Of a DNA stretch of 64,000 nt, positions 9,527 to 60,519 are shown piece by piece; the stretch's first letter is position 1, and every line of letters starts with the position of its first letter. A program made the position numbers and the translations under genes. The stretch covers positions 1-64,000 of the forward strand of contig JAAZXW010000011.1 in assembly GCA_014239955.1 (NCBI GenBank), given 5' to 3'. This stretch comes from Methanobacteriota archaeon. Lineage in GTDB: Archaea > Thermoplasmatota > Poseidoniia > Poseidoniales > Thalassarchaeaceae. The notes beneath the pieces are model-generated. The model made no database searches, was not told where the DNA came from, and saw only the letters and a program-made list of their open reading frames with translations.

Positions 9527-9546
9527 GAATTCGTGGAAGTTGTGAA

Positions 9547-11403: not shown

Positions 11404-14130
11404 CTATTCGCGGATGAACCAGTGTTCCTTCCTTGGTGGCAGAGGCCTCTTCATCCATAATGGCCTCCTTTCTCCACGAGGATGGACCTCTTTCTCCTTG
11501 GCCATCTCGTTCCATCTCTTGTAGTACTCAAACGACTTATTCGTATCGACCTCAACGTCCCCGTACTTCTCTCCTTCCACTGGTCTTGATATTCTCACCT
11601 TCTGAAGCCAGCAATGCGCACCGCTGATTGGGTCTGGCTGTACGGCATGAGTGATGTTCTGGTGCACCCCTCCATCCCTCCACCACACCCTGTTGGTATC
11701 CGGGTCGTCGGACTCCCATGGCCTGACTCCGGTGACCGTCCTCATCCGCATCCTGCCTTCTCCCAGGTCCTCTATCTCGACTTCGTTGGTCATGTATCTG
11801 TTGCCCGAGTCCTGTTTCCTTCGCCATCTCCCTATGTGGTGCGAGCATCCGATAATCCCCGGCTTAATCCCCTCAGTCACCCAGACCTTGTCGATGAACC
11901 AGCCTATCTCGGTCTCCACTTTGAGCAAGTCCCCCTCCCCAACCCCTAGCTTAGCAGCATCAGTGGGATGGACCCAAAGGGGGTTTCGGTGGGCTATCTC
12001 TGCCAGCCATTTGGCATTGGCAGAGCGTGAGTGGATGTGCTGGGGGAGTCGGAAGTTGGGTAGGAGGCAGTACTCGTCCTCTCCCTGTAGGTTGTCCGGA
12101 TGCACGTGGCTCATGACTCTGTAATGCGGGATGGAGTGCTCGGGGTATCCGAACTCTACCATGCTGTTTGAGTAAAGCTCCTGCTTCCCACTGGGCGTCG
12201 GCCATCCGTCTTCCTCGTGCTTATTGTAGGTGGCCTCCTCGATCAGGAAAGCACCGTGCTTCCTCATGTACCCAAGTGGATCCGTCCCTTCGGCCTCTGC
12301 TGCTTCTGGGAGTCCGGGAATCCTTTCGAACATGTACTGGTAGTATTCGTCGATGGTGATTCTCTCCCCCTCACGATACGGACTCATGAAGTGCTCGCGA
12401 ATCCCCATAGTCCCGTCGTCAATCCTCCATGACAACTCGTTCCAGAACTCGTCCTCCTCCCACACCTCTCCGGGATTTACCTCGTGCGTGAACTCGACCT
12501 CTTTCCCCTCCCTGCGTGCATACTCTCTCAGAACCGGTTGTCTGAACGCTACCCACTTGCCCGAGCTTGTCGCGTATGAGTTGACGTCGTGCCTCTCTGA
12601 GGCATGACCCATAGGGAGGACGTAGTCGGCGAAGAAAGCCGTCTCGTTCCAAGTAGGGGTTAGAGCCACGTGGCATCCAACCGACTCCTTGTTCTGCAGC
12701 ATCTCGATCCAAGAGAACCCATCCGGGTAGGTCCAAACTGGATTGAAAACCCTTGTGAAGTAAACGTCCATAGAGCCCCTGCCGTCCTTGACCAGGTGAG
12801 GTAGGATGTGACTCATCTCGTAGTGGGACAGGGTGTACTCAGGAGGGAAGTGCAACTCGTTCCATCCATCTGGGTCCGGAGGGTCGTCGAACAGGTCCGG
12901 CTTGTACTTCGACCACGAGTTGGGTGAAGTCCCGCCCTCGGTCCCGACGCTCCCTGTCAGGACGTTAAGCAGATGCAGGGTCCTGCTGACTTGCCAGCCA
13001 CCGAGATTACCTATGGCGGCAGCCCTCCAAACATGTGTCGCTAGCTTGCTTCCTGAGTTTGCTACGATTTCTCCGACCTCTATGACTTGCTCAATGGGGA
13101 TCCTGCACTCCTTCGCAGCGAACTCGGGCGTGTACTGTGCGTACTCTTCTCTTAGTAGTTCGATGAAGCGGTCGAACTCCAGTGGCTCTCCCGGATGATC
13201 GGCCTCCAACCACTCCTCCCAGTTCACCCAGTTCTCAACGAAGTCCCTGTCGAACAGGCCTCGTTCCAGAATCATGCTCGCCCATGAGAGGAAAAGGGCA
13301 GATTCGGATCCGGGCCAAGTCGGTAGCCAATGATCTGCCATCGCCGCTGTGTTGGAGAGCCTTGGGTCAATTACGATGAGCTTAGCACCATCCATCATTC
13401 CCTCGAGAATCCTCTGTGCATGTGGGTTGAAGTAGTGACCCGTCTCCAAATGGGAGGAAGTTAGTAAGATCACCTTGGCGTTGGCGTGATCGGGTGATGG
13501 CCTATCGTGACGATGCCAGAGTGAGTAGCCGGTCCTTGCTCCTGCGGAGCATATGTTTGTGTGGCTATTGTGGCCATCCACCCCCCATGCCTTCAGAATC
13601 CTGTTGGTGTACCCCTCGTGCCCAGGGCGTCCGACGTGATACACCACTCTGTCCTTGGCCCCTGTCTTCAGGGATTCACGAATCTTTGTGGAGATCTCGT
13701 CCAATGCCACTTCCCAGGAAATCCTCTCCCAACCTCCCTCTCCCCTGGGGCCCACCCTCCTCATTGGGTGGAGTATCCTCTCCGTGTCATTGATCTGGTT
13801 AATTGTGGCAGGGCCCTTGGCACAGTTCCTCCCCCTGCTCCCAGGGTGATGGGGGTTCCCTTCGAACTTCGATACCTTCCCCGAGTCCTTGTCGACATAG
13901 GCGAGAAGGCCACAGGCCGACTCGCAGTTGAAGCAGGTCGTCGGAATCAGTGAGTACCGTTTCTCGATCATCTTTGGCCACTCATTGGCATCAAGCTCCA
14001 CGTGATCGTGCCACTCATTCGGTTCGGGGAAAGCCCTCAGTGGGCCATTCGCCCCCTCAGCATCTCGTCTGTCCAGATTGGGAATTATTCGAAGGCGCTG
14101 TGCCACTTTCTCGATGAACGTCTTTCCCAA
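11404..14130 (-). CDS. Molybdopterin (Mo-bisPGD) oxidoreductase catalytic subunit, polysulfide/thiosulfate/tetrathionate-reductase-like; no Tat signal
   Basis: N-terminal [4Fe-4S] motif CFNCESACGLL...NPHHPGSRGRNCAKG; 908 aa; no S/T-RRxFLK motif in the first 40 residues. Confidence 0.7.
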   Translation of the reverse strand: MGKTFIEKVAQRLRIIPNLDRRDAEGANGPLRAFPEPNEWHDHVELDANEWPKMIEKRYSLIPTTCFNCESACGLLAYVDKDSGKVSKFEGNPHHPGSRGRNCAKGPATINQINDTERILHPMRRVGPRGEGGWERISWEVALDEISTKIRESLKTGAKDRVVYHVGRPGHEGYTNRILKAWGVDGHNSHTNICSAGARTGYSLWHRHDRPSPDHANAKVILLTSSHLETGHYFNPHAQRILEGMMDGAKLIVIDPRLSNTAAMADHWLPTWPGSESALFLSWASMILERGLFDRDFVENWVNWEEWLEADHPGEPLEFDRFIELLREEYAQYTPEFAAKECRIPIEQVIEVGEIVANSGSKLATHVWRAAAIGNLGGWQVSRTLHLLNVLTGSVGTEGGTSPNSWSKYKPDLFDDPPDPDGWNELHFPPEYTLSHYEMSHILPHLVKDGRGSMDVYFTRVFNPVWTYPDGFSWIEMLQNKESVGCHVALTPTWNETAFFADYVLPMGHASERHDVNSYATSSGKWVAFRQPVLREYARREGKEVEFTHEVNPGEVWEEDEFWNELSWRIDDGTMGIREHFMSPYREGERITIDEYYQYMFERIPGLPEAAEAEGTDPLGYMRKHGAFLIEEATYNKHEEDGWPTPSGKQELYSNSMVEFGYPEHSIPHYRVMSHVHPDNLQGEDEYCLLPNFRLPQHIHSRSANAKWLAEIAHRNPLWVHPTDAAKLGVGEGDLLKVETEIGWFIDKVWVTEGIKPGIIGCSHHIGRWRRKQDSGNRYMTNEVEIEDLGEGRMRMRTVTGVRPWESDDPDTNRVWWRDGGVHQNITHAVQPDPISGAHCWLQKVRISRPVEGEKYGDVEVDTNKSFEYYKRWNEMAKEKEVHPRGERRPLWMKRPLPPRKEHWFIRE

Positions 14131-14139
14131 CCTATCACC

Positions 14140-15579
14140 TCACAACAACGGCTCCATCTGCGGCCTCACGACCAAGTGATTGTCATGGGCAAGAATCCCT
14201 AACAGAACCACTCCACCTACTATGAAGGAGAGCGGTTCCATCAATACAAGGGGGAAGAAAACTGCAGCCCCTATGGCCACGGTCTCGACTAGGAACTTCG
14301 CAGGCAGTAGGGAATCTTCTGACCAAGATCTGCCCTTTGCCTGCATCAAGAGCCAAGCCGTGTACACCCCAGTGAGTAAGGCCAGGGGCAATCCAGCAAT
14401 TGCCAGGTACGAAAGAAATGTCCGATCAAGGTCCAGTATTATCACTGCCACACTTAGGGCTAACACTCCACCATATCCAGAGAGGATGTACGCCCCCCTG
14501 ACTAGCCAAGAGTCCCAATTAGGACGAAGCATCACGTAGAGGAACCTCTCTGGTCTGTCAAGATCAATAACAAGGAGCAATCCAGTAAGTGCGAGGAAAA
14601 CTACCCCAATTGCCAGGGTCATCGCCCACAGTCCATCACTCATCTCAACCAGTCCAGAAAGCATTGCTAGTACTGCTACTACATATGTTCCTGCTGCTAT
14701 CCCCTTTGTCCAGATGTAAGCTGACACTTCCCAACCCCACAGGACTCCCTTGCTCGGCTGATCGTAACTCCTCTTGGCCTCGCCTGTTTCGTTCGCTAGC
14801 CTATCCATCACATCTCTGATGATTGCCTGGTCTCTAGGGGCGGACTGCTTCGCCTTCTTCTCCAGAGCCAGTTGCACAATCATAGATTTGGTATCGGCAC
14901 CACCCAGTCGACTCTCTGCGTACTTTGCAAAGTGCCCGACGCCGAAGGCCTGCTCTGTCCACATGCCAGCCCCCGTCACATCTGTAGCGGATGGGTCAAG
15001 CATCTCCTCGCTAGCATCAATGTAGTACAAGTTGGGAACCGCACCTGACTGGGGCTTCCTCACCGTTGTTTCGTGGGAAGCTACAAGATTGGAAATTGCC
15101 GAGTTGGGGTCATCCAGGTCTCCTGAGACTATGGATTCCGTTGGGCAAACGATTACGCAGGCAGGTTCGTAGGAGTGCTCGATCCTGTGAGCGCAATAGT
15201 TGCACTTAGCAGCAGTTCCCTTGTTGGGGTCGATGTACAGGGCGTCGTAAGGGCACGCTTGCATGCACGACTTGCATCCTATGCACCTCTCATCATCGAA
15301 ATCGACTATCCCATCAGACCTCGTGAATAGCGCTGTAGTAGGGCAGATTGTAGTACATGGGGAATCCTCGCAATGGTTGCACCGATGGACGCTGAATTCT
15401 CTGGTGGAGTCCGGATATGTCCCCTTCTCGATGTACTTGACATGGGTCCTGTTTACCCCGATTGGGATATCGTGCTCTGACTTGCAGGCTACGGTGCAAG
15501 CGTGGCAGCCGATACAAGTCTTGTTGTTTATCACGAATCCGTAGTTCGTCACTATTGCTGCGACAAGGCTTCGACGCAA
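14140..15579 (-). CDS. Four-cluster ferredoxin (PsrB/DmsB-like) fused to a truncated NrfD/PsrC-like membrane anchor
   Basis: Four Cys motifs (CIGCHACTVAC, CNHCEDSPCTTICP, CIGCKSCMQACP, CNYCAH...CVIVCP); C-terminal about 200 aa contains WGWEVSAYIWTKGIAAG and DLDRPERFLYVMLRPNWDSWLVRGAYIL, which are NrfD-family signatures. Confidence 0.7.
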   Translation of the reverse strand: MRRSLVAAIVTNYGFVINNKTCIGCHACTVACKSEHDIPIGVNRTHVKYIEKGTYPDSTREFSVHRCNHCEDSPCTTICPTTALFTRSDGIVDFDDERCIGCKSCMQACPYDALYIDPNKGTAAKCNYCAHRIEHSYEPACVIVCPTESIVSGDLDDPNSAISNLVASHETTVRKPQSGAVPNLYYIDASEEMLDPSATDVTGAGMWTEQAFGVGHFAKYAESRLGGADTKSMIVQLALEKKAKQSAPRDQAIIRDVMDRLANETGEAKRSYDQPSKGVLWGWEVSAYIWTKGIAAGTYVVAVLAMLSGLVEMSDGLWAMTLAIGVVFLALTGLLLVIDLDRPERFLYVMLRPNWDSWLVRGAYILSGYGGVLALSVAVIILDLDRTFLSYLAIAGLPLALLTGVYTAWLLMQAKGRSWSEDSLLPAKFLVETVAIGAAVFFPLVLMEPLSFIVGGVVLLGILAHDNHLVVRPQMEPLL

Positions 15580-47883: not shown

Positions 47884-47969
47884 TGGTGCAGGGGATGGGA
47901 TTCGAACCCATGAAGCACTAAGCACCGGAGCTTAAGTCCGGCCCCTTTGACCAACTCGGGTACCCCTGC
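47884..47969 (-). tRNA. tRNA-Leu (anticodon UAA), 86 nt, long variable arm, genomically encoded CCA
   Basis: Reverse complement is GCAGGGG-TA-CCC-GAGTTGGTCAAA-GGG-G-CCGGA-CTTAAGC-TCCGG-(13-nt variable arm)-ATGGG-TTCGAAT-CCCAT-CCCCTGC-A-CCA. The 7-bp acceptor stem, D, anticodon and T stems all pair; the anticodon loop is CU-UAA-GC. Confidence 0.8.
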
Positions 47970-48085
47970 AGCCCAACGAGCCACGACTTTCGATTTCAAC
48001 CGAGCGGACGTTAACGTCCTATAACCGATGCATCCAGTACTCTACTCTCCCGAACTCTTTAACCTCTCGGATACGGCGCACAATC

Positions 48086-51022
48086 GTGCGAAAACGCAAC
48101 ACCGACCCCTCTGTACGTCAAAGTACACTCGTTACTCTCTCACTGGCGTTATTGATGCTGATTCCCGTGGGCTTCGATTTGGAGGCTTCTGAACTGCCCG
48201 ATTCCACGATCCTCAATGCTTCCGAAAGCGCACCAGACGCAAACCTGTACAAACTATACTTCGTCTCGTCCGGACAGAACCAGACTTCTGGAATGGACGG
48301 CCTAATTAGTACCGAACCGCCCGAGGCAGATCAGGATCAGGAAGTAGCCAGTGCTCTGGATGATGACGTCCAATTTATGTCTATTTCATTAATGTCATCG
48401 ATGGAATTTTTTGGCCGGAAGCACCATACAGATAACTCATACTACATTCCGGTTGAACTATTCCTGAAGTCCGAAGGATCCCAGAATTCTAACGTCGATT
48501 GGACCGTCTCAGTAATGACTTCTGAGAGGACTGTTGGCTCCAAAATTTACTCTGGTTCAGTATGCTCTTCTTCATTCGGAAGCAGTTGCGACTTCGACCA
48601 CGAGATTATCGATGTCGAAATAGGCAACTCAGAATCATTCCAAGTTGGAAAGAATGAGAGACTGATTATCAAAGTTAGAGCCAGCATGTCTGGATGCGAC
48701 AGCAGTGATAGCCCATTCGGGGGGTCTTGTACTGCGGACGTCGCCTTCAACAATATCGACAATGAGCCAAACAAATTCTCCAAGATGGAGGCAAACGGCA
48801 ATGCCCTGATGAATAGCATCATTGTTGTCCAGAGGGAAGGGGCAAACATAGCAGAGGGTTCGGAGATTGACTGGTACCCGAATGACATCGTCGAAGACAG
48901 AGAGATGCAGTTCTCGATAGATGCAATTAGTGCATTCGGAAGGGCTGATATCGCCAGGGTAGACATCCTGATGAGGGGTCCGGATGGAAACTACGAGGTC
49001 GACGAGAGGATTACTGGCGACATGGAGGAGATAGAAGACTCCAGCACAGGAATCTTCGGCAAGTTCCCCTATACGTACAATAGCGGGCTCAGCCCCGGTG
49101 AGTATGCAGTGATACTCAAGGTCCGGGATGTCGGTGGAAACGAGATTGAAATTGAGCACGAGCCCATCGAGATGCACCAGTTTGGAGTATCTCTGAAGCA
49201 TAGGTTCGATCGTTCGGTAGAGTACTTCGCACCAGGTAAGGTAACTCCTATCCCCATGGTACTTGTTCATAGAGGCGATTCGACAAAGTCGATGAACGTA
49301 GAATTAGAGGTGCTGACTAATCTAGGAAGCTCTTGGTTGGTTGAGTTCGATTCTCCTGCAGGATATGAGATGAGCTCTGGAGGGTCAGTCATTAATCCGA
49401 CAGTGACTCTAACCGCACCAGATGATCTAACTGGCATGCCGAAGAAGATCGAGATCAGAGCGGTTGCAGAGGCAGATGTGGAGGGGGTAATTTCGGTAGT
49501 CCATCAGGACACTCTCGTACTGGTTGTAGAGAAGGTTGATGTCTATCAGCCCCCCGTGGTCTCAATCTGGTCAGACGACCACAAGATACCGATAGCGAAT
49601 TCTTCCAGGGGTGATGCTCTGGATTCTACCATCCCCAGATTTGCCGAATATGGCGAATTCAACCCCTTCATATTGGAGATTTTCAATACTGGTTTCGATG
49701 CCGATAACTTCCGGATTGACATTCTCAAGAGATCGAAGTCAATCTTCCAGTTGCACGACAATCTCACAGGTCAGCGGATACTTCAGGACGAGGGGGATGG
49801 GACTTTCCACACTCCTTTATTGGAGAGGCACAGCACAAAGGTACTGATTCTCGGTGTGAAGCCAAGCTTGGATAGAGAGGACGAGGACATCGGTGAGATT
49901 GAGATAGAAGTAATCAGCGGCGGCAACGCATCATCATCAACAACCATTTCATTCACAATTCAGAGAACATACGGCATAAGGGGGGAGGTCTCACAAGACT
50001 GCGACGGAACTCCTCTCGGACACATGAAGGTGGCACTATGTGCACCCGGACAGGACAGACCGGTCTTGGACTTCAGGACCAGATTGACGAATAGTGAAGA
50101 CGACTTGGAGGCAGCATCTTGGTGGCTATTGCAAAACCCTGCTTCGTTGAATGAGAACACCGATCGAAACTCAGCCTACGGGCAATGGGAATTCAGGATC
50201 ACAAACTCAGACGGAGAGGCCGTCCCTCGAGTCTCCCTGGGTCCGGGGGACTTCACTGAGGTCTACATCAGCGTAACTCTGACGAACCAGGTAGAGGTCG
50301 GCAACCATACTGTTTTCTTGAGAATTTCCGAGGACATAGAAGACGACGATCCAAGATATTTCGATCTCCCGATGACATTCGAAATTGAAGCAGATCAACC
50401 AATGCTGGAGATCGTCCAAGTTTCCCAGAATACAAAACTTGCACCTGGTAATGACTACTCGATTCAAATGAAGGTGAAGAACGAAGGAAACAGTCCTATG
50501 ACCGTTCTCCTTGAAGCTGACGTTGATGAGAATGGATGGGATGTCAGTATCGGCGGCCTGTCGGGTTCGCCCCTGATTGAAATCGAAGCGTTCGACGAAG
50601 CCACCTTCACAGTCGAAATCTCCGTCTCAAGTTCCGCAAATAATGGGGATTCAATTCCGATTTCTGTAACTGCAACCCCACTGGATACGGATCAGAGCTT
50701 CTCAGAGTCTTTAACGGCTAAGTTCACTTTGACAGTAATTGTTGAGATAGGCTCTTTCGTTGACATCATAGTTAACGAAATGTCTCACCCCAGACCAATC
50801 ACTCTTGTTTTGGTGCTAGTAAGCGTACTATTGCTGTTTGCAGGTGTTCAGAGCAGGCTCAATAGGAGAAGATGGGCAGCACAGATGAGAGCGATAGAGT
50901 CACTTTCTGAGGATGAAACAGAGTCTCAAGAAAACACGCCAGAGATACCTGCCCCAGTTACAGTTATGGATGAGCCGAAGGGTGTGGAAAGATACGACGA
51001 TGACGATGTAGAGCTGATGTAA
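48086..51022 (+). CDS. Large cell-surface protein (978 aa): N-terminal signal/anchor, beta-rich extracellular region, C-terminal TM helix and an acidic cytoplasmic tail
   Basis: GTG start; N-terminal hydrophobic LVTLSLALLMLIPVGF; C-terminal ITLVLVLVSVLLLFAGV followed by RLNRRRW and an Asp/Glu-rich tail. Confidence 0.5.
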   Translation: MRKRNTDPSVRQSTLVTLSLALLMLIPVGFDLEASELPDSTILNASESAPDANLYKLYFVSSGQNQTSGMDGLISTEPPEADQDQEVASALDDDVQFMSISLMSSMEFFGRKHHTDNSYYIPVELFLKSEGSQNSNVDWTVSVMTSERTVGSKIYSGSVCSSSFGSSCDFDHEIIDVEIGNSESFQVGKNERLIIKVRASMSGCDSSDSPFGGSCTADVAFNNIDNEPNKFSKMEANGNALMNSIIVVQREGANIAEGSEIDWYPNDIVEDREMQFSIDAISAFGRADIARVDILMRGPDGNYEVDERITGDMEEIEDSSTGIFGKFPYTYNSGLSPGEYAVILKVRDVGGNEIEIEHEPIEMHQFGVSLKHRFDRSVEYFAPGKVTPIPMVLVHRGDSTKSMNVELEVLTNLGSSWLVEFDSPAGYEMSSGGSVINPTVTLTAPDDLTGMPKKIEIRAVAEADVEGVISVVHQDTLVLVVEKVDVYQPPVVSIWSDDHKIPIANSSRGDALDSTIPRFAEYGEFNPFILEIFNTGFDADNFRIDILKRSKSIFQLHDNLTGQRILQDEGDGTFHTPLLERHSTKVLILGVKPSLDREDEDIGEIEIEVISGGNASSSTTISFTIQRTYGIRGEVSQDCDGTPLGHMKVALCAPGQDRPVLDFRTRLTNSEDDLEAASWWLLQNPASLNENTDRNSAYGQWEFRITNSDGEAVPRVSLGPGDFTEVYISVTLTNQVEVGNHTVFLRISEDIEDDDPRYFDLPMTFEIEADQPMLEIVQVSQNTKLAPGNDYSIQMKVKNEGNSPMTVLLEADVDENGWDVSIGGLSGSPLIEIEAFDEATFTVEISVSSSANNGDSIPISVTATPLDTDQSFSESLTAKFTLTVIVEIGSFVDIIVNEMSHPRPITLVLVLVSVLLLFAGVQSRLNRRRWAAQMRAIESLSEDETESQENTPEIPAPVTVMDEPKGVERYDDDDVELM

Positions 51023-51098
51023 GAAAGGCAAATGTACGAACGACGCTCCATTCTTCTTAAGACCCGAAGTTAGCGCCAACAAAACGGGACCGATATTC

Positions 51099-54000
51099 AT
51101 GAAGTTCGTAATTTCAAATTACGAAGATTCCGACCCCATGGTCAAGAAGAGGTCCGCTACACTGCTAACCTGCTTACTACTCATGTCTGGAATCGCTTCA
51201 ATGCAGATCACAGTCTTCGAGGTTTCTGCTACTGTCAACGACCAAGATGCCGACGGTTTACCATACGGGATTGAGTTCCTAATTAACACCCAGCCCCAGG
51301 ATTGGGACTCTGATAATGACGGACTCCCAGATGGATGGGAATGGCAATATGGACTAGACCCACTTTCTTCATCTGGCGACAATGGATCGACAGGAGATCC
51401 CGACTCCGACGGCCTGACAAATCTGAATGAGTATCTTTACGGGATTCCTTCAGGCTGGGACGAGCCTTCTACTACGAATATCTTAGACAATGGGGTATGG
51501 TGGAATGGCACGATACCCGTTTCCAACTGGGACGAAGAGAGCGCAATGCAAGTGATTCAGGGTTCTGGATCAGACGGTGCCGACGAGGACCCGGTGGGCA
51601 ACATCTGTACTGACACGTTCGACAACGATCACGATGGGATGGTTGACTCAAATGACGGTGACTTTGATGGAGATGCGGACTGCAGCTCCAATGATGACGA
51701 TGGGGATGGAATTGCCGATGAGGATCCCAACGGATGGGACACCGATGGAGATGGGATGCCAGATGGATGGGAGGCGGCAAACGGATTGGATCCAACCTCT
51801 AATTCTAATCAAGACGGAACCTTCGGTGATCCCGATTTCGATGGGCTATCAAACATTTACGAATATGTCAATCCTGCATGGGGGACTAGAAATGGATCTA
51901 CATTCCCTCCAACGCAGTACTTCAGGCCAGGCCCAATCAATATGACTGTCACAGAGTCGCCCTGCAATCCAGTACTTTCGCTTGGCCCTGGAGGCTGTAC
52001 CATTTTTACCTCCGAGGTCGATGGAATTACTCAGACTGATCCGCAGAACAACGATACAGATGGAGATGGCTTGAACGACTCGTTAGAGGCTCTCGTCTTG
52101 TTGACCGACCCAACTTCGCCCGATACGGACTCCGACGGCATTTCTGATGGAGTCGAATTCAATGGCTCATACGGTGATCCTGCACAAGGTTCAGACCCAA
52201 GAAGCAACAATACGGATGGCGATCATCTGGATGATGGAGAAGAGGATCTGAATGGTAATGGGGTGATTGACACAGGAGAGACGGACCCAACTAGGATAAA
52301 TGACGAAGGGGACTTCGATGGTGATGGGATTCAAAACTGGGAAGAAAACAACTCCTGCACCCTATGGAACGTCTCAGATTCTGATGGCGGTGGAATCAGT
52401 GACGGCAACGAAGGCTTCCCCGGTCAGACGGATCCTTGTACTTCCATTTTCGATCTAGTCTTCACAATCATTTCTTGGGACGGTGATGCAGATACTCTCA
52501 CCATCAATTCCACTGTGGGGATCAATCCCGATCCGGCGGATTGGAGGGGGGACGTTCCGATGGCATATTTCGTCGCACCCAATGGGACACGCACACCGTT
52601 TACCTATGCATCTCTAGAGGATCCTTCATTCTTGAAAGGCGTGGATACCGAACCACCAATCGGAGCCAATGCGATTTTGTTCACGAATGGATCTTGGTGC
52701 TGGAACGTGTCTGCCAATGCTACCAATGACCCATGGTGCGATGATGACTACAAGGACTCAGATGGCGACGGGCTAGCAGACTGGGAGGAGTTGACTGCAA
52801 CCTGGGGATTCCTTTCGGATCCGACCCTTTTCGATACCGATGGTGATGGTGTCAATGACTTATCCGAGATTCTTAACCTCACAGATCCAAGGGAGCCTTG
52901 TGACAATCTCCTCGATACCGATGATGACGGCCTCAACAACTACTTCGAGAACACCACTGGTTGCTCGATGATTTTCGGGATCGGTGGCTTTGGCTTCGGT
53001 GGCAACTTCACTTCGGACGTTTGGTTTACTCTCTGGAACTTAGCCGATTCCGACAATGGAGGCGTTGACGATGGACAGGAATACCTCGATGGGACCAATC
53101 CCCAAGATAATCCGGACGACGATATCAATCCTCTAGATACCGATGGTGATGGAATCCCTGATTTGATTGAGCAGGAGCTTGGTACTGACTGGCTTGACCC
53201 TGACTCGGATGGAGGGGGTGTTCCCGATGGCGAAGAGTGCACAGAAGACTTCTGGGCCCTGGATTGTATCGGATCTCCGGGAGATCCATTCGATCCCATT
53301 GACGACATCCAGGAGAACGCACTAATGTTCACAGCAACCAATACCTCGGGAGGGATGGATCCCACCGTCAAACACTACTGGAGGTGGCATACTTACGACT
53401 TCTACACCGGAGTCTCATGGGGGGTCAATAGCACCCTAGTTGGGAATACCCAAGTTACTCCCGAATTCTCCACAGATCAAGGCGTGGCAGACCAGTCTTT
53501 CTGGAATCACTCCGGAGCACTTTCTTGGGAGATAATATTCGAAGGTGCCGGAAACATAGGGCCGGGTCAAGAACTCATACAACCCTATAATGTGGTCAAT
53601 TACACGACATGGGTGGATATTGCCGCGGGCCTCAACTTCTCCAACTACACTAGGGACATTATCGTGGATAGTGCCGTTGTGGAGGCCCTATATGTCAACG
53701 CTCCCGAAGTGATATTGTCCGCCGCAATCCGTGAAAACACCACAGTTTTCGCAAATTCTGATTACGGAAAGGATCTCCCTCAAGACTTCACGGATAACTC
53801 TGGTTTTGTTACGAATCTAACTCAGGACGTGCTGGACCAATCCGGAGCGATATCCGCATGGGACAAGATCTCCGCCATTCAGGACTTCATAGTGAACGGT
53901 AACGATACAATCTCTTTCCTTAGGAATCATTACGGTTCAGGAAGGACAAATGGGTTGGGGGTCGATAGCGATGTCACTCATTGGATTCTAAACTCTTCGA

Positions 54001-57000
54001 GAGAGGGAAACTGTGACGAGTTCACTTCCATCTTCGTGACCATGCTTAGAATAGCAGGAATCCCCGCTCGCAAGGTCACCGGTTTTTCTGGTGGCTCATG
54101 GGACGGCAAGGCATTCAACGTGTACGGTAAAGACTTCACAAGATGGGCGGAGGTTCATCTGCAGACAAACCAGAACCAGGGGGAACTGGACCTTGGTTGG
54201 ATCCCGTTCGAAGCATGTCCCCCTATTTCTGAAGTGATGGTCAATGTGGAATCTTGGGGTCCAACAGTAGTTGAGAGAAATACAACGATATCTGACTCAA
54301 TCTGGGTGGAGGGAACTCTGGAGTTTGTAGATAACCAAACCCTTGTGGAAAATATCTCTCTATTCATGTACTTGGTCGAACCGAGTAAATCCGACGAGGT
54401 CCCCGGAAGCGCTGCCATCGAAGAACATCTGGTGGCTAACGTAACTACGGATGCCAATGGTTCGTTCAATCTGACAGGGCTCCCCTCACAAGTTATCCAA
54501 CCAGGATTCGGGTCTCTGGTAATCCTGACTACCGAGAAGGGTTATGTTGGAACACAAGGAATTTCCATGCCATGGCAGGTCAACATCACAGATAATGTGT
54601 CAATTTCGATAACTAGCCCAATCCCGATTGGACAACCAATGCTAGGGATTGGGGTAAATTCGTCAATTACCGGACAATTGTCTTGGGCTAGCTCCCCCTA
54701 CCTGGACCCATCAATCGCAGATGATCTACAGGTCGTGCTAAACTATTCTTCGAGTGTAGATGGCGAGATATCAATTGTTTCAGGTGTTTCGGGTGGTGGT
54801 TACTACGAGTTCATCGTCCCAATTGACGAGACAGAACCACTCGGCCTGATGGATGCTGCTCTTTCCTTCCAAGGTTGGCATTTCGATGATATGAACAACG
54901 CGACGCCTCCTGCCTACCATGCCCGACCAGGCTCCTTCCCCTTCATGTTCAACATTACTCTTTCTCCAAATCTATCCGTTGAAATCGAGTCCCAGGGCGC
55001 AAATAACTCAATTCTTGAGATTGGAAGCAACATCTATCTGAATGGTACAGTTCTCAGTAGAGGGCCCTCTCCAACTCCCCTAAATGGGACTCTGATACTC
55101 GAGATGCGCAGAGCCGACATCTCCGGTCCCTTTGTCGAACTTTCCTCTTGGTATCTCAACAACTCATCATGGGGCGCGTCGCCGGGAGACTTCTCCATAT
55201 CGTGGCCATTCTCAGCTTCCGAAGTCCCTCTACCCGCAGGTCCAGTTGATGTGCGAATGCAGTTCGACTCGGATGACTTGAATTCGAACGATCAAGAGCA
55301 ATTTGTCGATACCTTCGGAATCAGAAGTTTCGTAGTTTTCGACTATGAACTCATCTTCGCAATCAGAGGACGGGAGTACGCAGTAGACGTATTCATGGAG
55401 GACCATACCGGCTCATCATTCGCTTCATTTGAGGGTGAATACACCCTTCTTTTCGATGGTGATAACGTTTGGAATCAAACCGATCCGGAAGCGGGGAGGA
55501 TCACACCGACGTTCACGCCTTTGTTCAACATGGATCCCGGTGACTATGATTGGAATCTCAGCTATAGCGGTTCAACTTGGCTCATCCCCAATTCTACATC
55601 TGGTTTACTTAGGGTTCGTGGGATGGCCAATGCATCTGTGAGCATCTCTGACGAGTGGTCTGTTAGGGGTTCGACAAATTGGATATCTGGATTCGCTAGC
55701 GATATGGTGCTGCAAAACCAGGTCATTGGAAACAACTCTTCCGTTGTGGCACAGCTCCTGTTGCCATCTGAACTGCCTACTACCCCTGGAGGTTTCCCTG
55801 CCGCCGGTCCGATTTACAACATTGCAAACGGTTGGGTGGATGAAGCAACCGGTGCCTACAACCTTTCATTCGAGATACCACAGGGAGTCCCATCGGGAGT
55901 TTATGAGATCGATGTCACCCTGAGTTTCTCGGGTAATCCTCCTGCAGGGGGGGGCTACTACAATGCAGGTGATCCCACAACAATCCAAATTGGAGTTCAG
56001 ACAGAGTTTGTCATCGAGACGGATCCCACAGCCTCGATCATAACTGCCGGTGAGCAATTGCTCCTTGAGTCCGTAGTGACCGATGTTGAGGATCCCAGTG
56101 AAATGCTCTCTGGCGTCGCTTTGGACCTCTATTTCGATTGGGGCGGGCCGCTCGAGACTATCCTTCAGTCTGGAACTACTAATTCAGAGGGCATGGTTTC
56201 CTTCGACCCTGTTGTCCCTTCTTCTGCTCCACCGGGATTCTATGATATTCGAGTGCACGCTCCAGACGACCTTTCCGATTCCCTTAGCACACCCGAAGCA
56301 GGCAGGTGGCTCGGGAACGAGAGCTTCGTTAACCTCACCGTCCAGGTAGCTAGCACGGTTGATATATCCTCGATTCCAACCCAAGTGACTGCACTGCAAT
56401 TCTTCAACCTGGTCGGTACCGTGATGGATTCTGCAGATATCAACAGGACCGTAGATGGCCCCGTGGGGATCAACGTCTTCTTCCTAGACGAGCCCGATGA
56501 GCTCCTGATTGATAACCAAACTACGAATATGTCAGGCGGATTCAACCTCACCGTTCCCACTGATACTCTAGGAAACGGTGTCCTGAGGGGCGACAGAACC
56601 GTGGTCGTCAGCGTCGTCAGCGGCTCTACTCCATTCTACCTCACAGGTAACGGGGACGCATCCATACTAGTGATCGGCGTGTCCCAGTTCGTCGATTCTA
56701 ATCCATTCGTCAATACCATCGTAGACAGAGGCCAATCGGCTACCATGACAACCAGACTTGTCGAGTTCAGCAACAACGAGGAGCCACTTTCCAGTTTCGA
56801 AGTCATGGTCCTTTTCCATGATACATGGCTTGATCCTGAAGTTACTGCAGCCGATGGCAGTGTCGCATTTGAATTCGAAATTCCTCACGACCACCCACTT
56901 GGCCTTGTGAATGTCACCTTCGTCTTCAACGGTTCCGAAGACCTCCACCAGGCAGTACAGATTCTGAATACAATCACTGTTAGATCTTCAACCACTATGG

Positions 57001-60000
57001 TGATCGATCCAATCACTGCCAATCCTCTTCCCGGGGAGTTCTTCAATGTGACTGGTTCTCTTACTTCTAGTAATGGGACTGGACTCTCTGACGCTTCAGG
57101 AAACTCGCTGAACCCTACATTGACATTCTCAATTGACGATGAAACCAGTACATTCACCGTATCTCAGGTTTCATTCCATTCGGATGGAACTTGGTCCGCC
57201 GAACTGAGACTCGACTTATCTTTCCAAAGGGGTCCACACGGATTGGAGGTATCTTTCACGCCCCAAGTAACATATTTCTCTTCAGCATCTGGGTTTTCCA
57301 CTTTCGATAGTAGGGGTTATTCGGTTCTAGCTATAGACAACCCGAATGACCTGGATCCGGACAACAGGACAATCAGGGGCGAAACATTCGACATCGACCT
57401 TTCCCTAATAGACAACGCAGGCGGACCCGTCTCTTCCGCTATAATCGTAGTCAGGATCGACAACATCACCGTTTGGGGCGGGCTGACCGATTCAAACGGG
57501 ACCGCTTCAGCATCAATACTCGTCAGACCCGACAGAGATCCCGGACCAATGGTGGTCACAGCCACATTCTCTGGCATCAATGGTACGATTGGCCTTCTTG
57601 GCGACGAGACATGGACAAGGGTCGTCGTCTTGGCCCCCACTGACTTGTTCCTGAAACAGGCATCCTCGCCTTCCATAGCAGGCGAGTCAGTAACACTCGT
57701 GGGCTCACTCTTGGATGAGAGGAATCAGATGCTGAAGGAAGATGGCAACTTTAGTGGTGGGCTAATCCACTTGTACATAGATGGAATTGATGTAGGCTCT
57801 GCTTACACCACATTCTCCAATGGAACCACAGGACAGTGGTCGATAACTTACCTCATTCCTGCAGATATGAACTTCGGTTCCCATACCGCTCGCGTCGACT
57901 TCCTGGGTGGCTTCTCATGGGTCGACCCTATGGGCCAAGGGGACTCCCTGAATCCAGAATACTACCTGCCTTCTTCGGATTCAATGGCGTTCAATGTGAC
58001 TCAAACCTCTCAAGTAGTCATCTCAACATCTCCAGCCGATATCGACAGGACCGGAGTGGCAATCGTCGAAGGGATGCTAACCGATGGCGTCGGTCGAGCC
58101 ATCCCAAACAGGGATCTCATCTTGTCAGTCAATGGAAATGAAATCACTGGTATTTCTGTGGACGAGAACGGATCATTCATCGGTTTCGTTCCAATCGCAC
58201 CCGACATGCCATTGGGGCCAATGCTAGTCGGAATAGAGTTCGCTGGCGAGGCCTTCATACTCCCATCAAACTCCTCTGTCGCCTTCGCCATCTATGCTCC
58301 CGTGTTCGTGGCGATGGACCAACCAAGTCCCATCGCGGTAGGAGATTCCATGGTTATTTCTGGTTCTGCAAAGGACAACTTGGAGAACGGTTGGCTCGGG
58401 AGCCATACAATCGAGGCCTTCGTGGACGGGGTCCTAGTGGGTATTACTAGCAGCCAGGAAAACGGCAACTGGTCAATTGAGTGGACAATTCCGGAGTCAA
58501 TGGAAGTTGGCAACCACTCGATATCTGCAATCTCCCCTGCTCAGGGATTCTACAGGCAGGGCGGCACCGAGTCAAATTTCACGGTCTCGTACCATACTTC
58601 GATATCCCTCCAGGTCGAACAGACCTATGTCACACGCGGCGGTCACTGGAACTTCTCTGGCAGGCTTTTCGAATCGGACACCGGATTTGAGCAGGGCCTG
58701 GAGGGGAGGGCGGTCTCAGTACTATTGGATGGGGTGCCCGTGGAACTGATTTCCACAGAAGAAGGGGGGATCTTCTCTTACAGCCACAGGGCAAAGTACT
58801 CATTGAGCAGGGGTGTGCATAATCTCTCTTTCCAGTTTGAGGGGGAGTTCCTCTATCTTCCCACCACGTTCGTTTCATCGGTTTTTGTCTTGTCAGACAT
58901 AGTGGTTGAGATCCAGCCGATTACCAACACAATTGTTCGTGGAGACGCATCCCCATCCAATTCCATCATGATACAGGGACTAGTTCGTGAGGTCGGCGGT
59001 GAATCCGCAATCTTCGACAATCTTTCCATGAGCCTTACTTGGGGGGATTCGAACCTCCCTCTAACATCTGGGCCATGGGATAACCCAAGCACGATGAACT
59101 TCCAGATTCGGGCCAAGGCTCAAGAGTTCATGCACCCGGGTGAGAACGTCATCACCATAGTGGTTGGTTCTGATCAGACAAGGTTCCTGAACGGCGCATC
59201 TCGGAATATCGAAATATTGGTTATGATCGAGGTTGACTTCGTCTACTCTGAACTTGATCTCTCAAACGGTCAGAGGGTAATCAGGGGCACGGTAAACGCT
59301 ACTGCTAGGGATACGGGGGCGCCCCTAGAGGGTCTCTCACTAACTGCCAGCCTGGCCAATGGCAGCGTCACCCATTTCTCAGTCTCCAAGCTGACTGGGG
59401 CAGATGGCGTCTTCGAGTACGAGTTCAAGGCAATGTCCCCACTTCCAGCGTTTTCCGAACAGGAACTCCCCCCAGTGGGATGGGGGCTTCTCAGTGTGAT
59501 GATCGGGTCGGACTCCGAGTTCATTGCCCCGGGCAGCCTCTCCCTCCTGCCTTCATCGGGGGTCCCGATAGCCTACGAGAAGCAGGAAGGGGGCTCATTC
59601 TTTGGCAGCACCACAGTAGCACTCGGGGCACTCGTGGTCGCTACAATCGCCATAGCCCTCGGTGCTTTGGCATTCAACACAAAGAGGAAGTCAACGATCA
59701 GGGAGCTCGCAAAGGTTCTTGGCCAGACAGTTGAGATGTTGGCATCAGGGGACGAATACCGAAGGGCGATTTTCCTCTGCTACGAGAATCTATGCTCAGT
59801 GCTGATGCGTCGGGGTTTCCTTCGTAGGAACTTCGAAACAGTTCGAGAGTTTGAGTCCGCAATCAGGGAAGCATTGCCTATCAGCGAGGCCTCATTGGTC
59901 TCTCTTGACCGAATCTTCGAGGAGGCCCGATACTCAAGCCATGTTCTGGGAGATGCCCATAGGGACAATGCACAACTAGCGCTCTCATCTGTCATGCAGG

Positions 60001-60062
60001 AGATAGAGGAAATGCAGGATATTCCGGAGAGGGGGCCACTTCAAATTGAGATGGACGAGTAG
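51099..60062 (+). CDS. Giant surface protein (2987 aa). Domain order: signal peptide, about 15 thrombospondin type-3 (DxDxDGxxDxxE) calcium-binding repeats, a transglutaminase-like cysteine-protease core, a long array of Ig-like beta domains, a single TM helix, and a cytoplasmic DUF4129-like domain
   Basis: TSP3 repeats such as DSDNDGLPDGWE and DTDGDGIPDLIE; transglutaminase-like core GNCDEFTSIFVTMLRIAGIPARKVTGF...RWAEVHL...GWIPFEA; TM helix TVALGALVVATIAIALGALAF; C-terminus RRGFLRRNFETVREFESAI...LDRIFEEARYSS resembles DUF4129. Confidence 0.6.
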   Translation: MKFVISNYEDSDPMVKKRSATLLTCLLLMSGIASMQITVFEVSATVNDQDADGLPYGIEFLINTQPQDWDSDNDGLPDGWEWQYGLDPLSSSGDNGSTGDPDSDGLTNLNEYLYGIPSGWDEPSTTNILDNGVWWNGTIPVSNWDEESAMQVIQGSGSDGADEDPVGNICTDTFDNDHDGMVDSNDGDFDGDADCSSNDDDGDGIADEDPNGWDTDGDGMPDGWEAANGLDPTSNSNQDGTFGDPDFDGLSNIYEYVNPAWGTRNGSTFPPTQYFRPGPINMTVTESPCNPVLSLGPGGCTIFTSEVDGITQTDPQNNDTDGDGLNDSLEALVLLTDPTSPDTDSDGISDGVEFNGSYGDPAQGSDPRSNNTDGDHLDDGEEDLNGNGVIDTGETDPTRINDEGDFDGDGIQNWEENNSCTLWNVSDSDGGGISDGNEGFPGQTDPCTSIFDLVFTIISWDGDADTLTINSTVGINPDPADWRGDVPMAYFVAPNGTRTPFTYASLEDPSFLKGVDTEPPIGANAILFTNGSWCWNVSANATNDPWCDDDYKDSDGDGLADWEELTATWGFLSDPTLFDTDGDGVNDLSEILNLTDPREPCDNLLDTDDDGLNNYFENTTGCSMIFGIGGFGFGGNFTSDVWFTLWNLADSDNGGVDDGQEYLDGTNPQDNPDDDINPLDTDGDGIPDLIEQELGTDWLDPDSDGGGVPDGEECTEDFWALDCIGSPGDPFDPIDDIQENALMFTATNTSGGMDPTVKHYWRWHTYDFYTGVSWGVNSTLVGNTQVTPEFSTDQGVADQSFWNHSGALSWEIIFEGAGNIGPGQELIQPYNVVNYTTWVDIAAGLNFSNYTRDIIVDSAVVEALYVNAPEVILSAAIRENTTVFANSDYGKDLPQDFTDNSGFVTNLTQDVLDQSGAISAWDKISAIQDFIVNGNDTISFLRNHYGSGRTNGLGVDSDVTHWILNSSREGNCDEFTSIFVTMLRIAGIPARKVTGFSGGSWDGKAFNVYGKDFTRWAEVHLQTNQNQGELDLGWIPFEACPPISEVMVNVESWGPTVVERNTTISDSIWVEGTLEFVDNQTLVENISLFMYLVEPSKSDEVPGSAAIEEHLVANVTTDANGSFNLTGLPSQVIQPGFGSLVILTTEKGYVGTQGISMPWQVNITDNVSISITSPIPIGQPMLGIGVNSSITGQLSWASSPYLDPSIADDLQVVLNYSSSVDGEISIVSGVSGGGYYEFIVPIDETEPLGLMDAALSFQGWHFDDMNNATPPAYHARPGSFPFMFNITLSPNLSVEIESQGANNSILEIGSNIYLNGTVLSRGPSPTPLNGTLILEMRRADISGPFVELSSWYLNNSSWGASPGDFSISWPFSASEVPLPAGPVDVRMQFDSDDLNSNDQEQFVDTFGIRSFVVFDYELIFAIRGREYAVDVFMEDHTGSSFASFEGEYTLLFDGDNVWNQTDPEAGRITPTFTPLFNMDPGDYDWNLSYSGSTWLIPNSTSGLLRVRGMANASVSISDEWSVRGSTNWISGFASDMVLQNQVIGNNSSVVAQLLLPSELPTTPGGFPAAGPIYNIANGWVDEATGAYNLSFEIPQGVPSGVYEIDVTLSFSGNPPAGGGYYNAGDPTTIQIGVQTEFVIETDPTASIITAGEQLLLESVVTDVEDPSEMLSGVALDLYFDWGGPLETILQSGTTNSEGMVSFDPVVPSSAPPGFYDIRVHAPDDLSDSLSTPEAGRWLGNESFVNLTVQVASTVDISSIPTQVTALQFFNLVGTVMDSADINRTVDGPVGINVFFLDEPDELLIDNQTTNMSGGFNLTVPTDTLGNGVLRGDRTVVVSVVSGSTPFYLTGNGDASILVIGVSQFVDSNPFVNTIVDRGQSATMTTRLVEFSNNEEPLSSFEVMVLFHDTWLDPEVTAADGSVAFEFEIPHDHPLGLVNVTFVFNGSEDLHQAVQILNTITVRSSTTMVIDPITANPLPGEFFNVTGSLTSSNGTGLSDASGNSLNPTLTFSIDDETSTFTVSQVSFHSDGTWSAELRLDLSFQRGPHGLEVSFTPQVTYFSSASGFSTFDSRGYSVLAIDNPNDLDPDNRTIRGETFDIDLSLIDNAGGPVSSAIIVVRIDNITVWGGLTDSNGTASASILVRPDRDPGPMVVTATFSGINGTIGLLGDETWTRVVVLAPTDLFLKQASSPSIAGESVTLVGSLLDERNQMLKEDGNFSGGLIHLYIDGIDVGSAYTTFSNGTTGQWSITYLIPADMNFGSHTARVDFLGGFSWVDPMGQGDSLNPEYYLPSSDSMAFNVTQTSQVVISTSPADIDRTGVAIVEGMLTDGVGRAIPNRDLILSVNGNEITGISVDENGSFIGFVPIAPDMPLGPMLVGIEFAGEAFILPSNSSVAFAIYAPVFVAMDQPSPIAVGDSMVISGSAKDNLENGWLGSHTIEAFVDGVLVGITSSQENGNWSIEWTIPESMEVGNHSISAISPAQGFYRQGGTESNFTVSYHTSISLQVEQTYVTRGGHWNFSGRLFESDTGFEQGLEGRAVSVLLDGVPVELISTEEGGIFSYSHRAKYSLSRGVHNLSFQFEGEFLYLPTTFVSSVFVLSDIVVEIQPITNTIVRGDASPSNSIMIQGLVREVGGESAIFDNLSMSLTWGDSNLPLTSGPWDNPSTMNFQIRAKAQEFMHPGENVITIVVGSDQTRFLNGASRNIEILVMIEVDFVYSELDLSNGQRVIRGTVNATARDTGAPLEGLSLTASLANGSVTHFSVSKLTGADGVFEYEFKAMSPLPAFSEQELPPVGWGLLSVMIGSDSEFIAPGSLSLLPSSGVPIAYEKQEGGSFFGSTTVALGALVVATIAIALGALAFNTKRKSTIRELAKVLGQTVEMLASGDEYRRAIFLCYENLCSVLMRRGFLRRNFETVREFESAIREALPISEASLVSLDRIFEEARYSSHVLGDAHRDNAQLALSSVMQEIEEMQDIPERGPLQIEMDE

Positions 60063-60063
60063 G

Positions 60064-60519
60064 TCAATCCAACTTGATGGAGATGACTTCTCCTTCCCAA
60101 ATCGCACCAGAGACAACCCTCTCCTTTGGAAGACGGAATGACCTGAGCATCCCCCCGAAATTCTCGGGTGCTACAATACGGACTATCTGGGAAACGCCAT
60201 CACTCTTCGTGTCGACGGTAAACTCGTCCCTGTTGGTTGCTGGCAATGGGAGTCTGATTTCAGACTCAGACCACTCTCCACCGAACTCTGAGACAAATTC
60301 TCCTAGGGTGGACACAGAGTCTCTGAGGGCCCTAGACTCGATTTCCGAGGCCACTACTCCATGCATCTCCTGAACTTCCGAGAGATGGGGTAGAGAATTC
60401 AGGAACTCTTTGTGCATTGACTCCGCATCCGTATCCAGACCCACCTTCAGGTCGGCTAATCCGCCTGCTCTATCGATGATGGCTTCATCGGATTGGACAT
60501 CGACCCTCGTCCACTCCAT
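60064..60519 (-). CDS. Hsp20/alpha-crystallin-like small heat-shock protein (tentative)
   Basis: C-terminal ...SFRLPKERVVSGAIWEGEVISIKL resembles the sHsp F.LP..V....A...GVL.I..PK ending; weak. Confidence 0.35.
   Translation of the reverse strand: MEWTRVDVQSDEAIIDRAGGLADLKVGLDTDAESMHKEFLNSLPHLSEVQEMHGVVASEIESRALRDSVSTLGEFVSEFGGEWSESEIRLPLPATNRDEFTVDTKSDGVSQIVRIVAPENFGGMLRSFRLPKERVVSGAIWEGEVISIKLD

Follow-up and report, generated by a model that had tools for sequence, protein, structure and literature searches.

The window analysed here is a 64-kb stretch of DNA (contig JAAZXW010000011.1) in which two adjacent genes encode a protein of 978 amino acids (aa), called P1, and a protein of 2987 aa, called the giant. 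With a probability of about 0.55, they are read as a constrained pair of envelope glycoproteins of the Poseidoniales in which a transglutaminase (TGase) module of the giant is non-catalytic. The genes were located from their open reading frames (ORFs) and translations:

48086..51022, + strand: P1 gene, GTG start, 978 aa
51099..60062, + strand: giant gene, ATG start, 2987 aa

Both are co-oriented, separated by 76 nt and together occupy 18.6% of the window. An earlier note on this DNA had described two co-oriented genes of these sizes with a spacing of about 75 nt and a share of 19%, and these values agree.

The first line of evidence is the conservation of the giant, for which 1558 homologues were identified at E<=1e-10. 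The best 120 of these comprise 2937-3017 aa with 98-100% query cover, the sole length outlier being a UniRef entry of 2660 aa, and run from 93% to 40% identity; length in this set is fixed within about 1% over the range of 40-93% identity. The group at about 40% identity includes a protein named Poseidoniaceae, so that the gene spans both families of Poseidoniales. A scan of GTDB with one genome per species gave 315 stretches encoding a relative of the giant. Gene order was compared with 83 loci from other genomes, judged where the contig reaches, and in 83 of 83 it is LipA(-), SDR(+), FolB(+), P1(+), giant(+), a small ORF(-) and XPD(-). The same order was identified in L086, a locus with a more distant giant of 3088 aa. 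Compared with related genomes, as the earlier note had suggested, the pair is conserved and its codon usage is typical: GC content at third codon positions (GC3) is 0.54, like that of the neighbouring genes, and no other gene departs less from the remainder of the window in relative synonymous codon usage (RSCU). The lineage-restricted architecture that had been supposed is also borne out: it occurs in Poseidoniales, and other Thermoplasmatota have more loosely related proteins.

Conservation is not evenly distributed along the giant. The median identities to the window, taken across the 55 loci holding all genes, are the following:

Giant, thrombospondin type-3 (TSP3) region: 71% (70-71%)
Giant, TGase module: 60%
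Giant, stalk: 52%
Giant, tail: 62%
P1: 57%
LipA: 72%
XPD: 62%
SDR: 52%
FolB: 44%

Within the ectodomain, conservation is highest in the membrane-distal TSP3 region and lowest in the domains near the membrane. Invariant length and a conserved distal region point to a dimensionally constrained structural role, and this combination is the opposite of what is seen in variable repeat adhesins and arms-race surface antigens. The variable adhesin implied by the earlier note does not agree with a length kept within about 1% and a distal TSP3 region conserved like lipoyl synthase. Since the constraint on length, synteny and sequence matches that on housekeeping genes, a structural scaffold is the most likely role, ahead of a variable adhesin or an enzyme.

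The second line of evidence is the architecture of the giant, which comprises these parts, all on the + strand:

51162..51218, + strand: signal peptide h-region, residues 22-40, preceded by KKR (hydropathy scan)
51240..53228, + strand: calcium-binding repeats of TSP3 type, residues 48-710; six Cys pairs are conserved
53301..54278, + strand: TgpA-like module, residues ~735-1060, formed by a beta-sandwich and a TGase-fold core with a degenerate triad
53949..54215, + strand: Pfam Transglut_core match, residues 951-1039
54279..59597, + strand: beta-sandwich stalk, residues 1061-2833
59598..59681, + strand: single transmembrane (TM) helix, residues 2834-2861, hydropathy 2.52, followed by NTKRK
59682..60059, + strand: DUF4129 tail, predicted cytoplasmic, residues 2862-2987; the Pfam match covers residues 2894-2961 (59778-59981)

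About 15 TSP3 repeats had been counted in the earlier note; a regular expression found 15-17 DxDxDG-type motifs across residues 48-710, and TSP3_bac (PF18884) passed its cut-off (32.3 bits against 25) in a scan restricted to the N-terminal 689 aa. The similarity of this region to CglD in NCBIfam is 97 bits, far under the cut-off of 400. Five Cys pairs (170/195, 289/300, 420/447, 534/547 and 601/622) are conserved at 93-100%. As cited in bioRxiv 10.1101/2023.11.21.568195, Dai et al. 2017 characterized bacterial TSP3 domains as intra-repeat, disulfide-dependent calcium-binding repeats. The TSP3 region with its paired Cys matches this type, and loading with calcium is probable.

In the stalk only sub-threshold Pfam matches were obtained (MG2, MG4, CarboxypepD_reg and Big_1), whereas profile-profile self-comparison resolved residues ~1560-2800 into tandem homologous units of ~100 aa, with probability up to 99%; with hhalign on family sub-alignments, 86 of 300 pairs of alignment windows reached a probability of at least 80%. 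The long Ig-like array proposed before stands as a tandem array, and its assignment to Ig-like families stays below the Pfam thresholds. Topology was assigned by Kyte-Doolittle hydropathy and the positive-inside rule. Exactly two hydrophobic segments were identified in the giant, residues 22-40 and 2834-2861, the second being the single TM helix expected from the earlier note, and its position is conserved across the family. The tail is predicted to be cytoplasmic because the basic NTKRK follows the helix, and both the giant and P1 are predicted type-I membrane proteins with short cytoplasmic tails. The giant is very acidic, with a net charge of -331 and 0.8% lysine.

The last ~125 residues of the giant rank among its most conserved, and the motif L-R-R-x-F-E-T-V-R-E-F-E-x-A-x-R-x-A-x-P...L-x-x-L-D-x-x-F-E-x-A-R-Y-S is invariant in 20 family-spanning sequences. 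A DUF4129-like cytoplasmic tail had been claimed, and the Pfam match (residues 2894-2961) agrees with it marginally, at 25.8 bits against a cut-off of 24.8, on a side of the membrane that is predicted by the positive-inside rule. Further support came from a profile of the TM helix and tail, which, run against 1.84 billion representatives, retrieved 3128 proteins (E<=1e-3); the retrieved proteins score 23-42 bits for DUF4129, all but one over the cut-off, and many orthologues of the giant carry a precomputed PF13559 match. After the Poseidoniales family, the next tier of this profile is formed by Thermoplasmatota proteins, comprising proteins of 1050-1430 aa (a beta-sandwich array, a TM helix and a DUF4129 tail) and several giants of 1.7-3.0 thousand residues. 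No solved homologue of the DUF4129 tail was found.

The giant contains 80 N-x-S/T sequons where 31 are expected from composition. In 29 aligned homologues there are 75-99 sequons each, 1.8-2.9 times the expectation, and 24 sequon positions are kept in at least 80% of the 29 sequences. P1 has 6 sequons against 7.4 expected, and P1 together with its orthologues is mostly near expectation (5-8 against 4-9). This pattern suggests heavy N-glycosylation of the giant only.

The third line of evidence is the TGase module. Its Transglut_core match (residues 951-1039, E=1.4e-12) scores 48.3 bits against a cut-off of 23, a significant match as the earlier note had anticipated. Residues 690-1130 were modelled with AlphaFold2 (AF2) from 15 family sequences; the model has a predicted TM-score (pTM) of 0.82 and presents a TgpA-like fold. 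The top Foldseek match in the Protein Data Bank (PDB) is the periplasmic domain of Pseudomonas aeruginosa TgpA (6g49, E=2e-13, target TM-score 0.57-0.61), followed by 3isr, TglA and other putative proteases with a TGase fold. TgpA is the best PDB match by sequence too (phmmer), and in this alignment the 'HAW' of TgpA stands opposite 'TRW', so that the position of the catalytic His is occupied by Thr1014.

The family alignment of 29 sequences shows how far the site has been remodelled. Cys972, aligned with the Cys of TgpA and factor XIII, is invariant (29/29). The His position is T, S, D, N, A or E and never His, and no conserved His was found in the columns near Thr1014. At the Asp position the window has Glu1038 and the family E, Q, K, N or D. 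A second Cys, Cys1040, lies two residues past the Asp position and is also invariant. In four further representatives of Poseidoniales type the His is missing and the sequence reads ...[DE][AP]CP, and four relatives from other Thermoplasmatota keep G-H-x-H-[AT]-W and have Thr or Ser at the position of Cys1040. The two changes, His lost and Cys gained, thus coincide and mark out the Poseidoniales clade. The 14 ectodomain Cys form seven consecutive co-conserved pairs, namely the five of the TSP3 region listed above, 714/723 and 972/1040, and we infer that Cys972-Cys1040 is a seventh disulfide and the module a pseudo-enzyme. Of the transglutaminase-like thiol-protease core that had been proposed, the match, the TgpA fold and Cys972 are confirmed, whereas the catalytic His and Asp are not kept. 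Canonical cross-linking or proteolysis is unlikely because the His is absent and the Asp position variable, and the extracellular activity suggested with that core is not supported.

P1, the second member of the pair, has these features:

48125..48184, + strand: N-terminal hydrophobic segment (Kyte-Doolittle), residues 14-33, a signal peptide or anchor, with basic RKRN...R before it
48245..48835, + strand: N-terminal jelly-roll, residues ~54-250, galactose-binding-domain-like
48893..50755, + strand: beta-sandwich array, residues ~270-890, Ig/PapD/MG-like
50786..50863, + strand: TM helix, residues 901-926, hydropathy 2.46, AF2 helix 904-937, followed by RLNRRR
50864..51019, + strand: acidic tail, predicted cytoplasmic, with a conserved [DE][DE][VI]EL[VIM]-COOH end (10-orthologue alignment)

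With exactly two hydrophobic segments, P1 has the same layout as the giant. Its AF2 model is an all-beta string with mean predicted local distance difference test (pLDDT) of 69.5 and pTM of 0.38; with these values the single domains are usable and their mutual arrangement is not. In this model an N-terminal jelly-roll, which is well modelled, is followed by about seven beta-sandwiches and, at the C-terminal end, a TM helix. In the tail, Y970, D974, E976 and L977 are invariant or nearly so. The homologues of P1 number 657, all of them unnamed ('hypothetical') and from Poseidoniales, and an orthologue of P1 precedes the giant in every locus reaching far enough. P1 was also compared with DUF4350, with DUF58 and with the 571-aa protein of locus L085, as a possible divergent member, and rejected in each case with hhalign probabilities <1%.

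In the favoured reading both proteins would be exported and each anchored by one C-terminal helix. From the membrane outward, the giant would comprise the beta-sandwich stalk of ~1750 residues, the TgpA-type module and a TSP3 tip of ~650 residues that is presumably disulfide-stapled and calcium-binding. The ectodomain probably bears dozens of N-glycans, judging from the sequon statistics. The TGase module would be a non-catalytic structural or ligand-binding unit, possibly locked by the Cys972-Cys1040 disulfide. The DUF4129 tail presumably docks a conserved intracellular or membrane partner, for which the acidic C terminus of P1 is one speculative candidate. The function of the pair would be that of a structural surface scaffold, like a glycocalyx or S-layer, maybe with calcium-dependent adhesion as well. 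As for its origin, the giant may be a derived and expanded member of the TgpA/DUF4129 lineage that no longer stands beside DUF4350, DUF58 or MoxR.

Several points weigh against this reading. The topology is drawn solely from hydropathy and the positive-inside rule, and the abundance and surface location of the pair are themselves deduced from sequence. Cys972 could still be a nucleophile with an unconventional partner residue, in a non-canonical thiol chemistry. P1 and the giant are always neighbours, but co-transcription is not a given and their pairing is suggested by gene context: the giant has its own conserved upstream element, apart from P1, and in locus L003 a PRORP-like gene lies between the orthologues of P1 and the giant. 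This gene (8599-9858, 419 aa) is PRORP/RNase_Zc3h12a-like, and the giant of that locus is 42% identical to that of the window.

A stronger version of the favoured reading takes the pair as the principal envelope scaffold of Poseidoniales, a glycocalyx or a canopy like an S-layer, derived from a TgpA-type enzyme turned structural pseudo-enzyme, and is held as doubtful. Here the Cys-His-Asp site would have become a Cys-Cys site (disulfide or redox); the DUF4129 tail, freed from MoxR, DUF58 and DUF4350, would couple the envelope to the cytoplasm, possibly via the acidic C terminus of P1; and an unusually conserved operator upstream would control the expression of the giant. If true, this would assign a main component to the envelope, never characterised before, of Poseidoniales, the surface ocean's most abundant planktonic archaea.

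The alternative of a dedicated calcium-dependent adhesin overlaps partly with the favoured reading and is equally doubtful. The stalk would present a TSP3/TGase-like head to particles, phytoplankton or other cells, with P1 as a co-receptor whose jelly-roll would bind carbohydrate. TSP3 repeats on a beta-sandwich stalk are like those of known adhesins, the N-terminal domain of P1 resembles galactose-binding-like jelly-rolls, and widespread 'thrombospondin' genes have been cited as evidence of adhesion in Poseidoniales (Rinke et al., PMC6461757). However, repeat number and total length are invariant, the distal region is the most conserved instead of the most variable, and the gene is a single syntenic one in a housekeeping neighbourhood. 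A structural role fits better than an adhesin adapted to host or substrate, although both roles may coexist.

Another alternative, also partly overlapping and rather unlikely, is that the giant remains part of an ordinary TgpA-type system whose MoxR, DUF58 and DUF4350 genes lie at other places in the genome, linkage alone having been lost. The premise of the earlier note, that transglutaminase-like and DUF4129 domains of bacteria typically belong to MoxR/DUF58-associated membrane proteins, is supported by published work. MoxR-DUF58-transglutaminase is a common gene arrangement, to which bifidobacterial operons add a gene for an FN3 surface protein (PMC6803598), and tgpA forms one transcript with PA2875 and PA2874 and encodes a protein whose TGase domain is periplasmic and flanked by TM helices (PMC3507681). 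The tail of the giant is a conserved DUF4129, and in locus L085, from a Thermoplasmata-like archaeon, the 2612-aa relative P0307 is directly followed by co-oriented DUF4350 and DUF58 genes. The region downstream of this relative (L085, 15433-19632) comprises DUF4350 (416 aa), DUF58 (414 aa) and an unannotated gene of 571 aa, with MoxR not among the listed genes. A MoxR-DUF58 operon also exists on a marine contig of uncertain taxon labelled Thermoplasmata/'Euryarchaeota'.

The neighbourhood of the giant argues against this alternative. The window was checked with Pfam on ORFs of at least 120 aa (the first 30 kb and most of the remainder, with a few translations read) and with tblastn for DUF58 and DUF4350 over its whole length, and no MoxR, DUF58 or DUF4350 was identified in the parts checked, in agreement with the earlier note as to MoxR and DUF58. 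Likewise, Pfam context gave no MoxR or DUF58 within ~10 kb in L001-L003 and L086, and tblastn gave no DUF58 or DUF4350 within ~10 kb of the giant in any other locus examined. In a DUF58 search of limited sensitivity, none of 71 matches was named Poseidoniales, the names being Thermoplasmata or Thermoplasmatota together with one marine operon. The remodelled catalytic site also suggests a changed function. The marine operon (L087/L088, 7688-11724, on a 'Thermoplasmata/Euryarchaeota' contig) comprises a 269-aa gene, a 165-aa gene, MoxR (AAA_3), DUF58 and a 164-aa gene, and is relevant to the question of whether MoxR-DUF58 and DUF4129 proteins are kept apart in planktonic Thermoplasmatota. Since a relative with the same domains adjoins DUF4350 and DUF58 genes, the giant of Poseidoniales is a derived member of the TgpA/DUF4129 type, and the earlier view of a system distinct from the MoxR/DUF58 proteins is not sustained. 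It is best seen as a member that has lost the catalytic His and the linked DUF4350 and DUF58 genes and has become linked to P1 instead.

An active extracellular transglutaminase or thiol protease, whose core cross-links or cleaves surface or environmental proteins while the rest serves as scaffold, is improbable. The strong Transglut_core match, the invariant Cys972 and the fold shared with TgpA, for which TGase activity in vitro has been reported (PMC3507681), speak for it. On the other hand, the residues at the His and Asp positions vary, no conserved His nearby takes over, relatives that keep the His lack Cys1040 and vice versa, which indicates a remodelled site, and Cys972 fits the paired, probably disulfide-bonded, pattern of the ectodomain Cys.

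The only tRNA of the window, beside which the earlier note had placed the pair, is indeed 116 nt before P1 and on the opposite strand:

47884..47969, - strand: tRNA-Leu(TAA), identified by ARAGORN and by Rfam RF00005 (60.7 bits)

In the three loci checked (L001, L002 and L003) it has FolB on one side and the P1 orthologue on the other, and it is a conserved syntenic neighbour outside the protein system. The horizontally acquired, tRNA-associated surface-protein island to which this tRNA and the large surface-protein genes could have pointed is rejected, because the tRNA is on the opposite strand and in the same place in distant relatives, all loci reaching far enough share one set of flanking genes in one order, the codon usage and GC3 are typical with the lowest RSCU distance in the window, and neither integrase nor repeat was seen among the annotated neighbours. 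With its fixed order, syntenic tRNA and typical codon usage, the locus is an ancestral core feature.

Two elements were identified upstream of the genes:

48050..48063, + strand: CCGAAC-TC-TTTAAC, resembling a transcription factor B recognition element (BRE) and TATA box, 23-28 nt before the GTG of P1
51034..51065, + strand: conserved non-coding element GTACGAACGACGCTCCATTCTTCTTAAGACCC, 32 nt, directly upstream of the giant

The first, read from the sequence, suggests a promoter and a leaderless P1 mRNA. It favours the GTG start of the 978-aa P1, with the signal peptide kept; most public gene calls begin P1 at Met24 (955-956 aa), which would remove it. The second is unique in the window at <=3 mismatches, with a chance expectation of 0. 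Its 17-mer core occurs once per locus at a constant position in 64 of 88 loci, where the flanking proteins are merely 54-60% identical, and a degenerate copy was identified in L003 and L086. Neither an Rfam match nor a conserved RNA fold was found for the element or for the spacer between P1 and the giant; the spacer was discarded as an RNA element for this reason, and the element is taken as a signal at the DNA level. It is probably a dedicated promoter or operator of the giant gene.

Downstream, the giant is followed by a convergent gene whose stop lies one base apart from its own:

60064..60519, - strand: small ORF, 151 aa

This ORF is syntenic in nearly all loci and fast-evolving (22-89% identity). 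It has no Pfam match, and a relation to Hsp20 was dropped on that account.

The host is an archaeon of the Thalassarchaeaceae in Marine Group II (MGII), since the window encodes aRF1, aTrm56, class-I LysRS and XPD helicase and the homologues of P1 and the giant carry the names Candidatus Thalassarchaeaceae, Poseidoniales or 'marine group II'. The bacterial frame of the earlier note does not apply to it. A 2-oxoacid dehydrogenase/lipoate cluster is also encoded. The window shows a step in composition near 24 kb, with GC of 0.52-0.57 and GC3 up to 0.73 before it and GC of 0.48-0.53 after it. The first ~24 kb holds ABC transporters and, at 11404-15579, a molybdopterin oxidoreductase with a 4Fe-4S/NrfD partner, a cluster that might be a horizontally acquired respiratory module. 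A flotillin gene (Band_7 and Flot) is located at 8108-9526; flotillin-type and 'thrombospondin' genes have been grouped as adhesion-related in Poseidoniales (Rinke et al., PMC6461757). Finally, one locus labelled 'Chloroflexota bacterium' (L075, PBAZ01000027.1) holds the complete archaeal LipA...P1-giant...XPD locus, and its label is probably a binning error of a metagenome-assembled genome (MAG).

Proteins of the giant type are named 'transglutaminase domain-containing', 'DUF4129 domain-containing' or 'hypothetical' in public databases. The giant is a membrane protein of TgpA/DUF4129 type and not a new category. In the literature searched, its architecture, conservation and remodelled active site, the P1 partner and the upstream element are all undescribed, MGII and transglutaminase, or DUF4129 and transglutaminase, do not appear in combination, DUF4129 is mentioned in only two papers, and an S-layer or envelope protein of MGII has not been identified. 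MGII (Poseidoniales) are abundant and uncultured, and the pair stands as a concrete candidate for the principal structure of their surface. The giant is also a candidate for particle attachment, for virus adsorption and as a handle for enrichment with antibodies or lectins. The family offers a natural experiment on the TgpA/DUF4129/DUF58/MoxR module, which is widespread yet poorly understood: the tail is conserved while the catalytic His, the DUF4350/DUF58 neighbours and the polytopic N terminus are gone, which suggests a function of the tail independent of catalysis. As a long, length-invariant, single-locus marker whose surroundings are fixed, the gene also aids binning checks of Poseidoniales MAGs.

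Compared with known systems, the giant shares with TgpA (PA2873 of Pseudomonas aeruginosa) the extracytoplasmic module of beta-sandwich and TGase fold (6g49, E=2e-13), and in both a TM helix follows the TGase module, with ~1750 extra residues in between in the giant. TgpA likewise ends in a C-terminal tail of DUF4129 type. The giant lacks the N-terminal 5-TM DUF3488/TgpA_N region, having a signal peptide instead; its TgpA_N match (12.5 bits against 30) covers profile positions 213-282, the non-membrane part. It carries in addition TSP3 repeats (~650 aa) and beta-sandwich domains (~1750 aa). Its catalytic His has been lost, its Asp position varies and a new Cys has arisen, and it stands in an archaeal host with no MoxR or DUF58 neighbour. 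In size it reaches 2987 aa against 668-688 aa for TgpA (PMC3507681).

The PFNA operon of Bifidobacterium (pkb2-fn3-MoxR-duf58-tgm) parallels P1 and the giant in that the gene of an FN3 surface protein lies by the gene of a membrane transglutaminase-like protein (PMC6803598). It differs in its kinase, MoxR and DUF58, absent at the P1-giant locus, and in that Tgm is polytopic and fast-evolving under positive selection whereas the P1-giant pair is strongly conserved.

With thrombospondin/COMP type-3 repeats and bacterial TSP3 proteins (CglD, MtsD and OmpA-type), the giant shares the DxDxDG calcium motifs and conserved Cys pairs. CglD is its best NCBIfam similarity, but the scores for CglD and MtsD (97 against 400 and 31.6 against 800) are below the equivalog cut-offs. 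The giant has neither a VWA domain nor a lipoprotein signal, and the similarity is confined to the repeats.

Among archaeal envelopes, two-component S-layers are represented by SlaA/SlaB of Sulfolobales, and the wall-less Thermoplasmatales have membrane glycoproteins. No relation in sequence or fold of P1 and the giant to known S-layer proteins was identified beyond generic Ig-like domains. By analogy, SlaA/SlaB and the present pair may be compared as adjacent genes for a large, probably N-glycosylated protein and a smaller one anchored by a C-terminal TM helix, both acidic. The pair differs in that P1 and the giant are both predicted to be membrane-anchored.

P0307 of locus L085 has the domain set of the giant. 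This relative comprises a signal peptide, TSP3 repeats, a TgpA-like TGase module, a beta-sandwich array, a TM helix and a DUF4129 tail homologous to that of the giant (E=1.9e-22). It differs from the giant in that the TGase module stands ahead of most TSP3 repeats and a P1-like partner is not among the listed genes. In the active site it keeps Cys...HAW...FEAT, with the His present and the second Cys absent.

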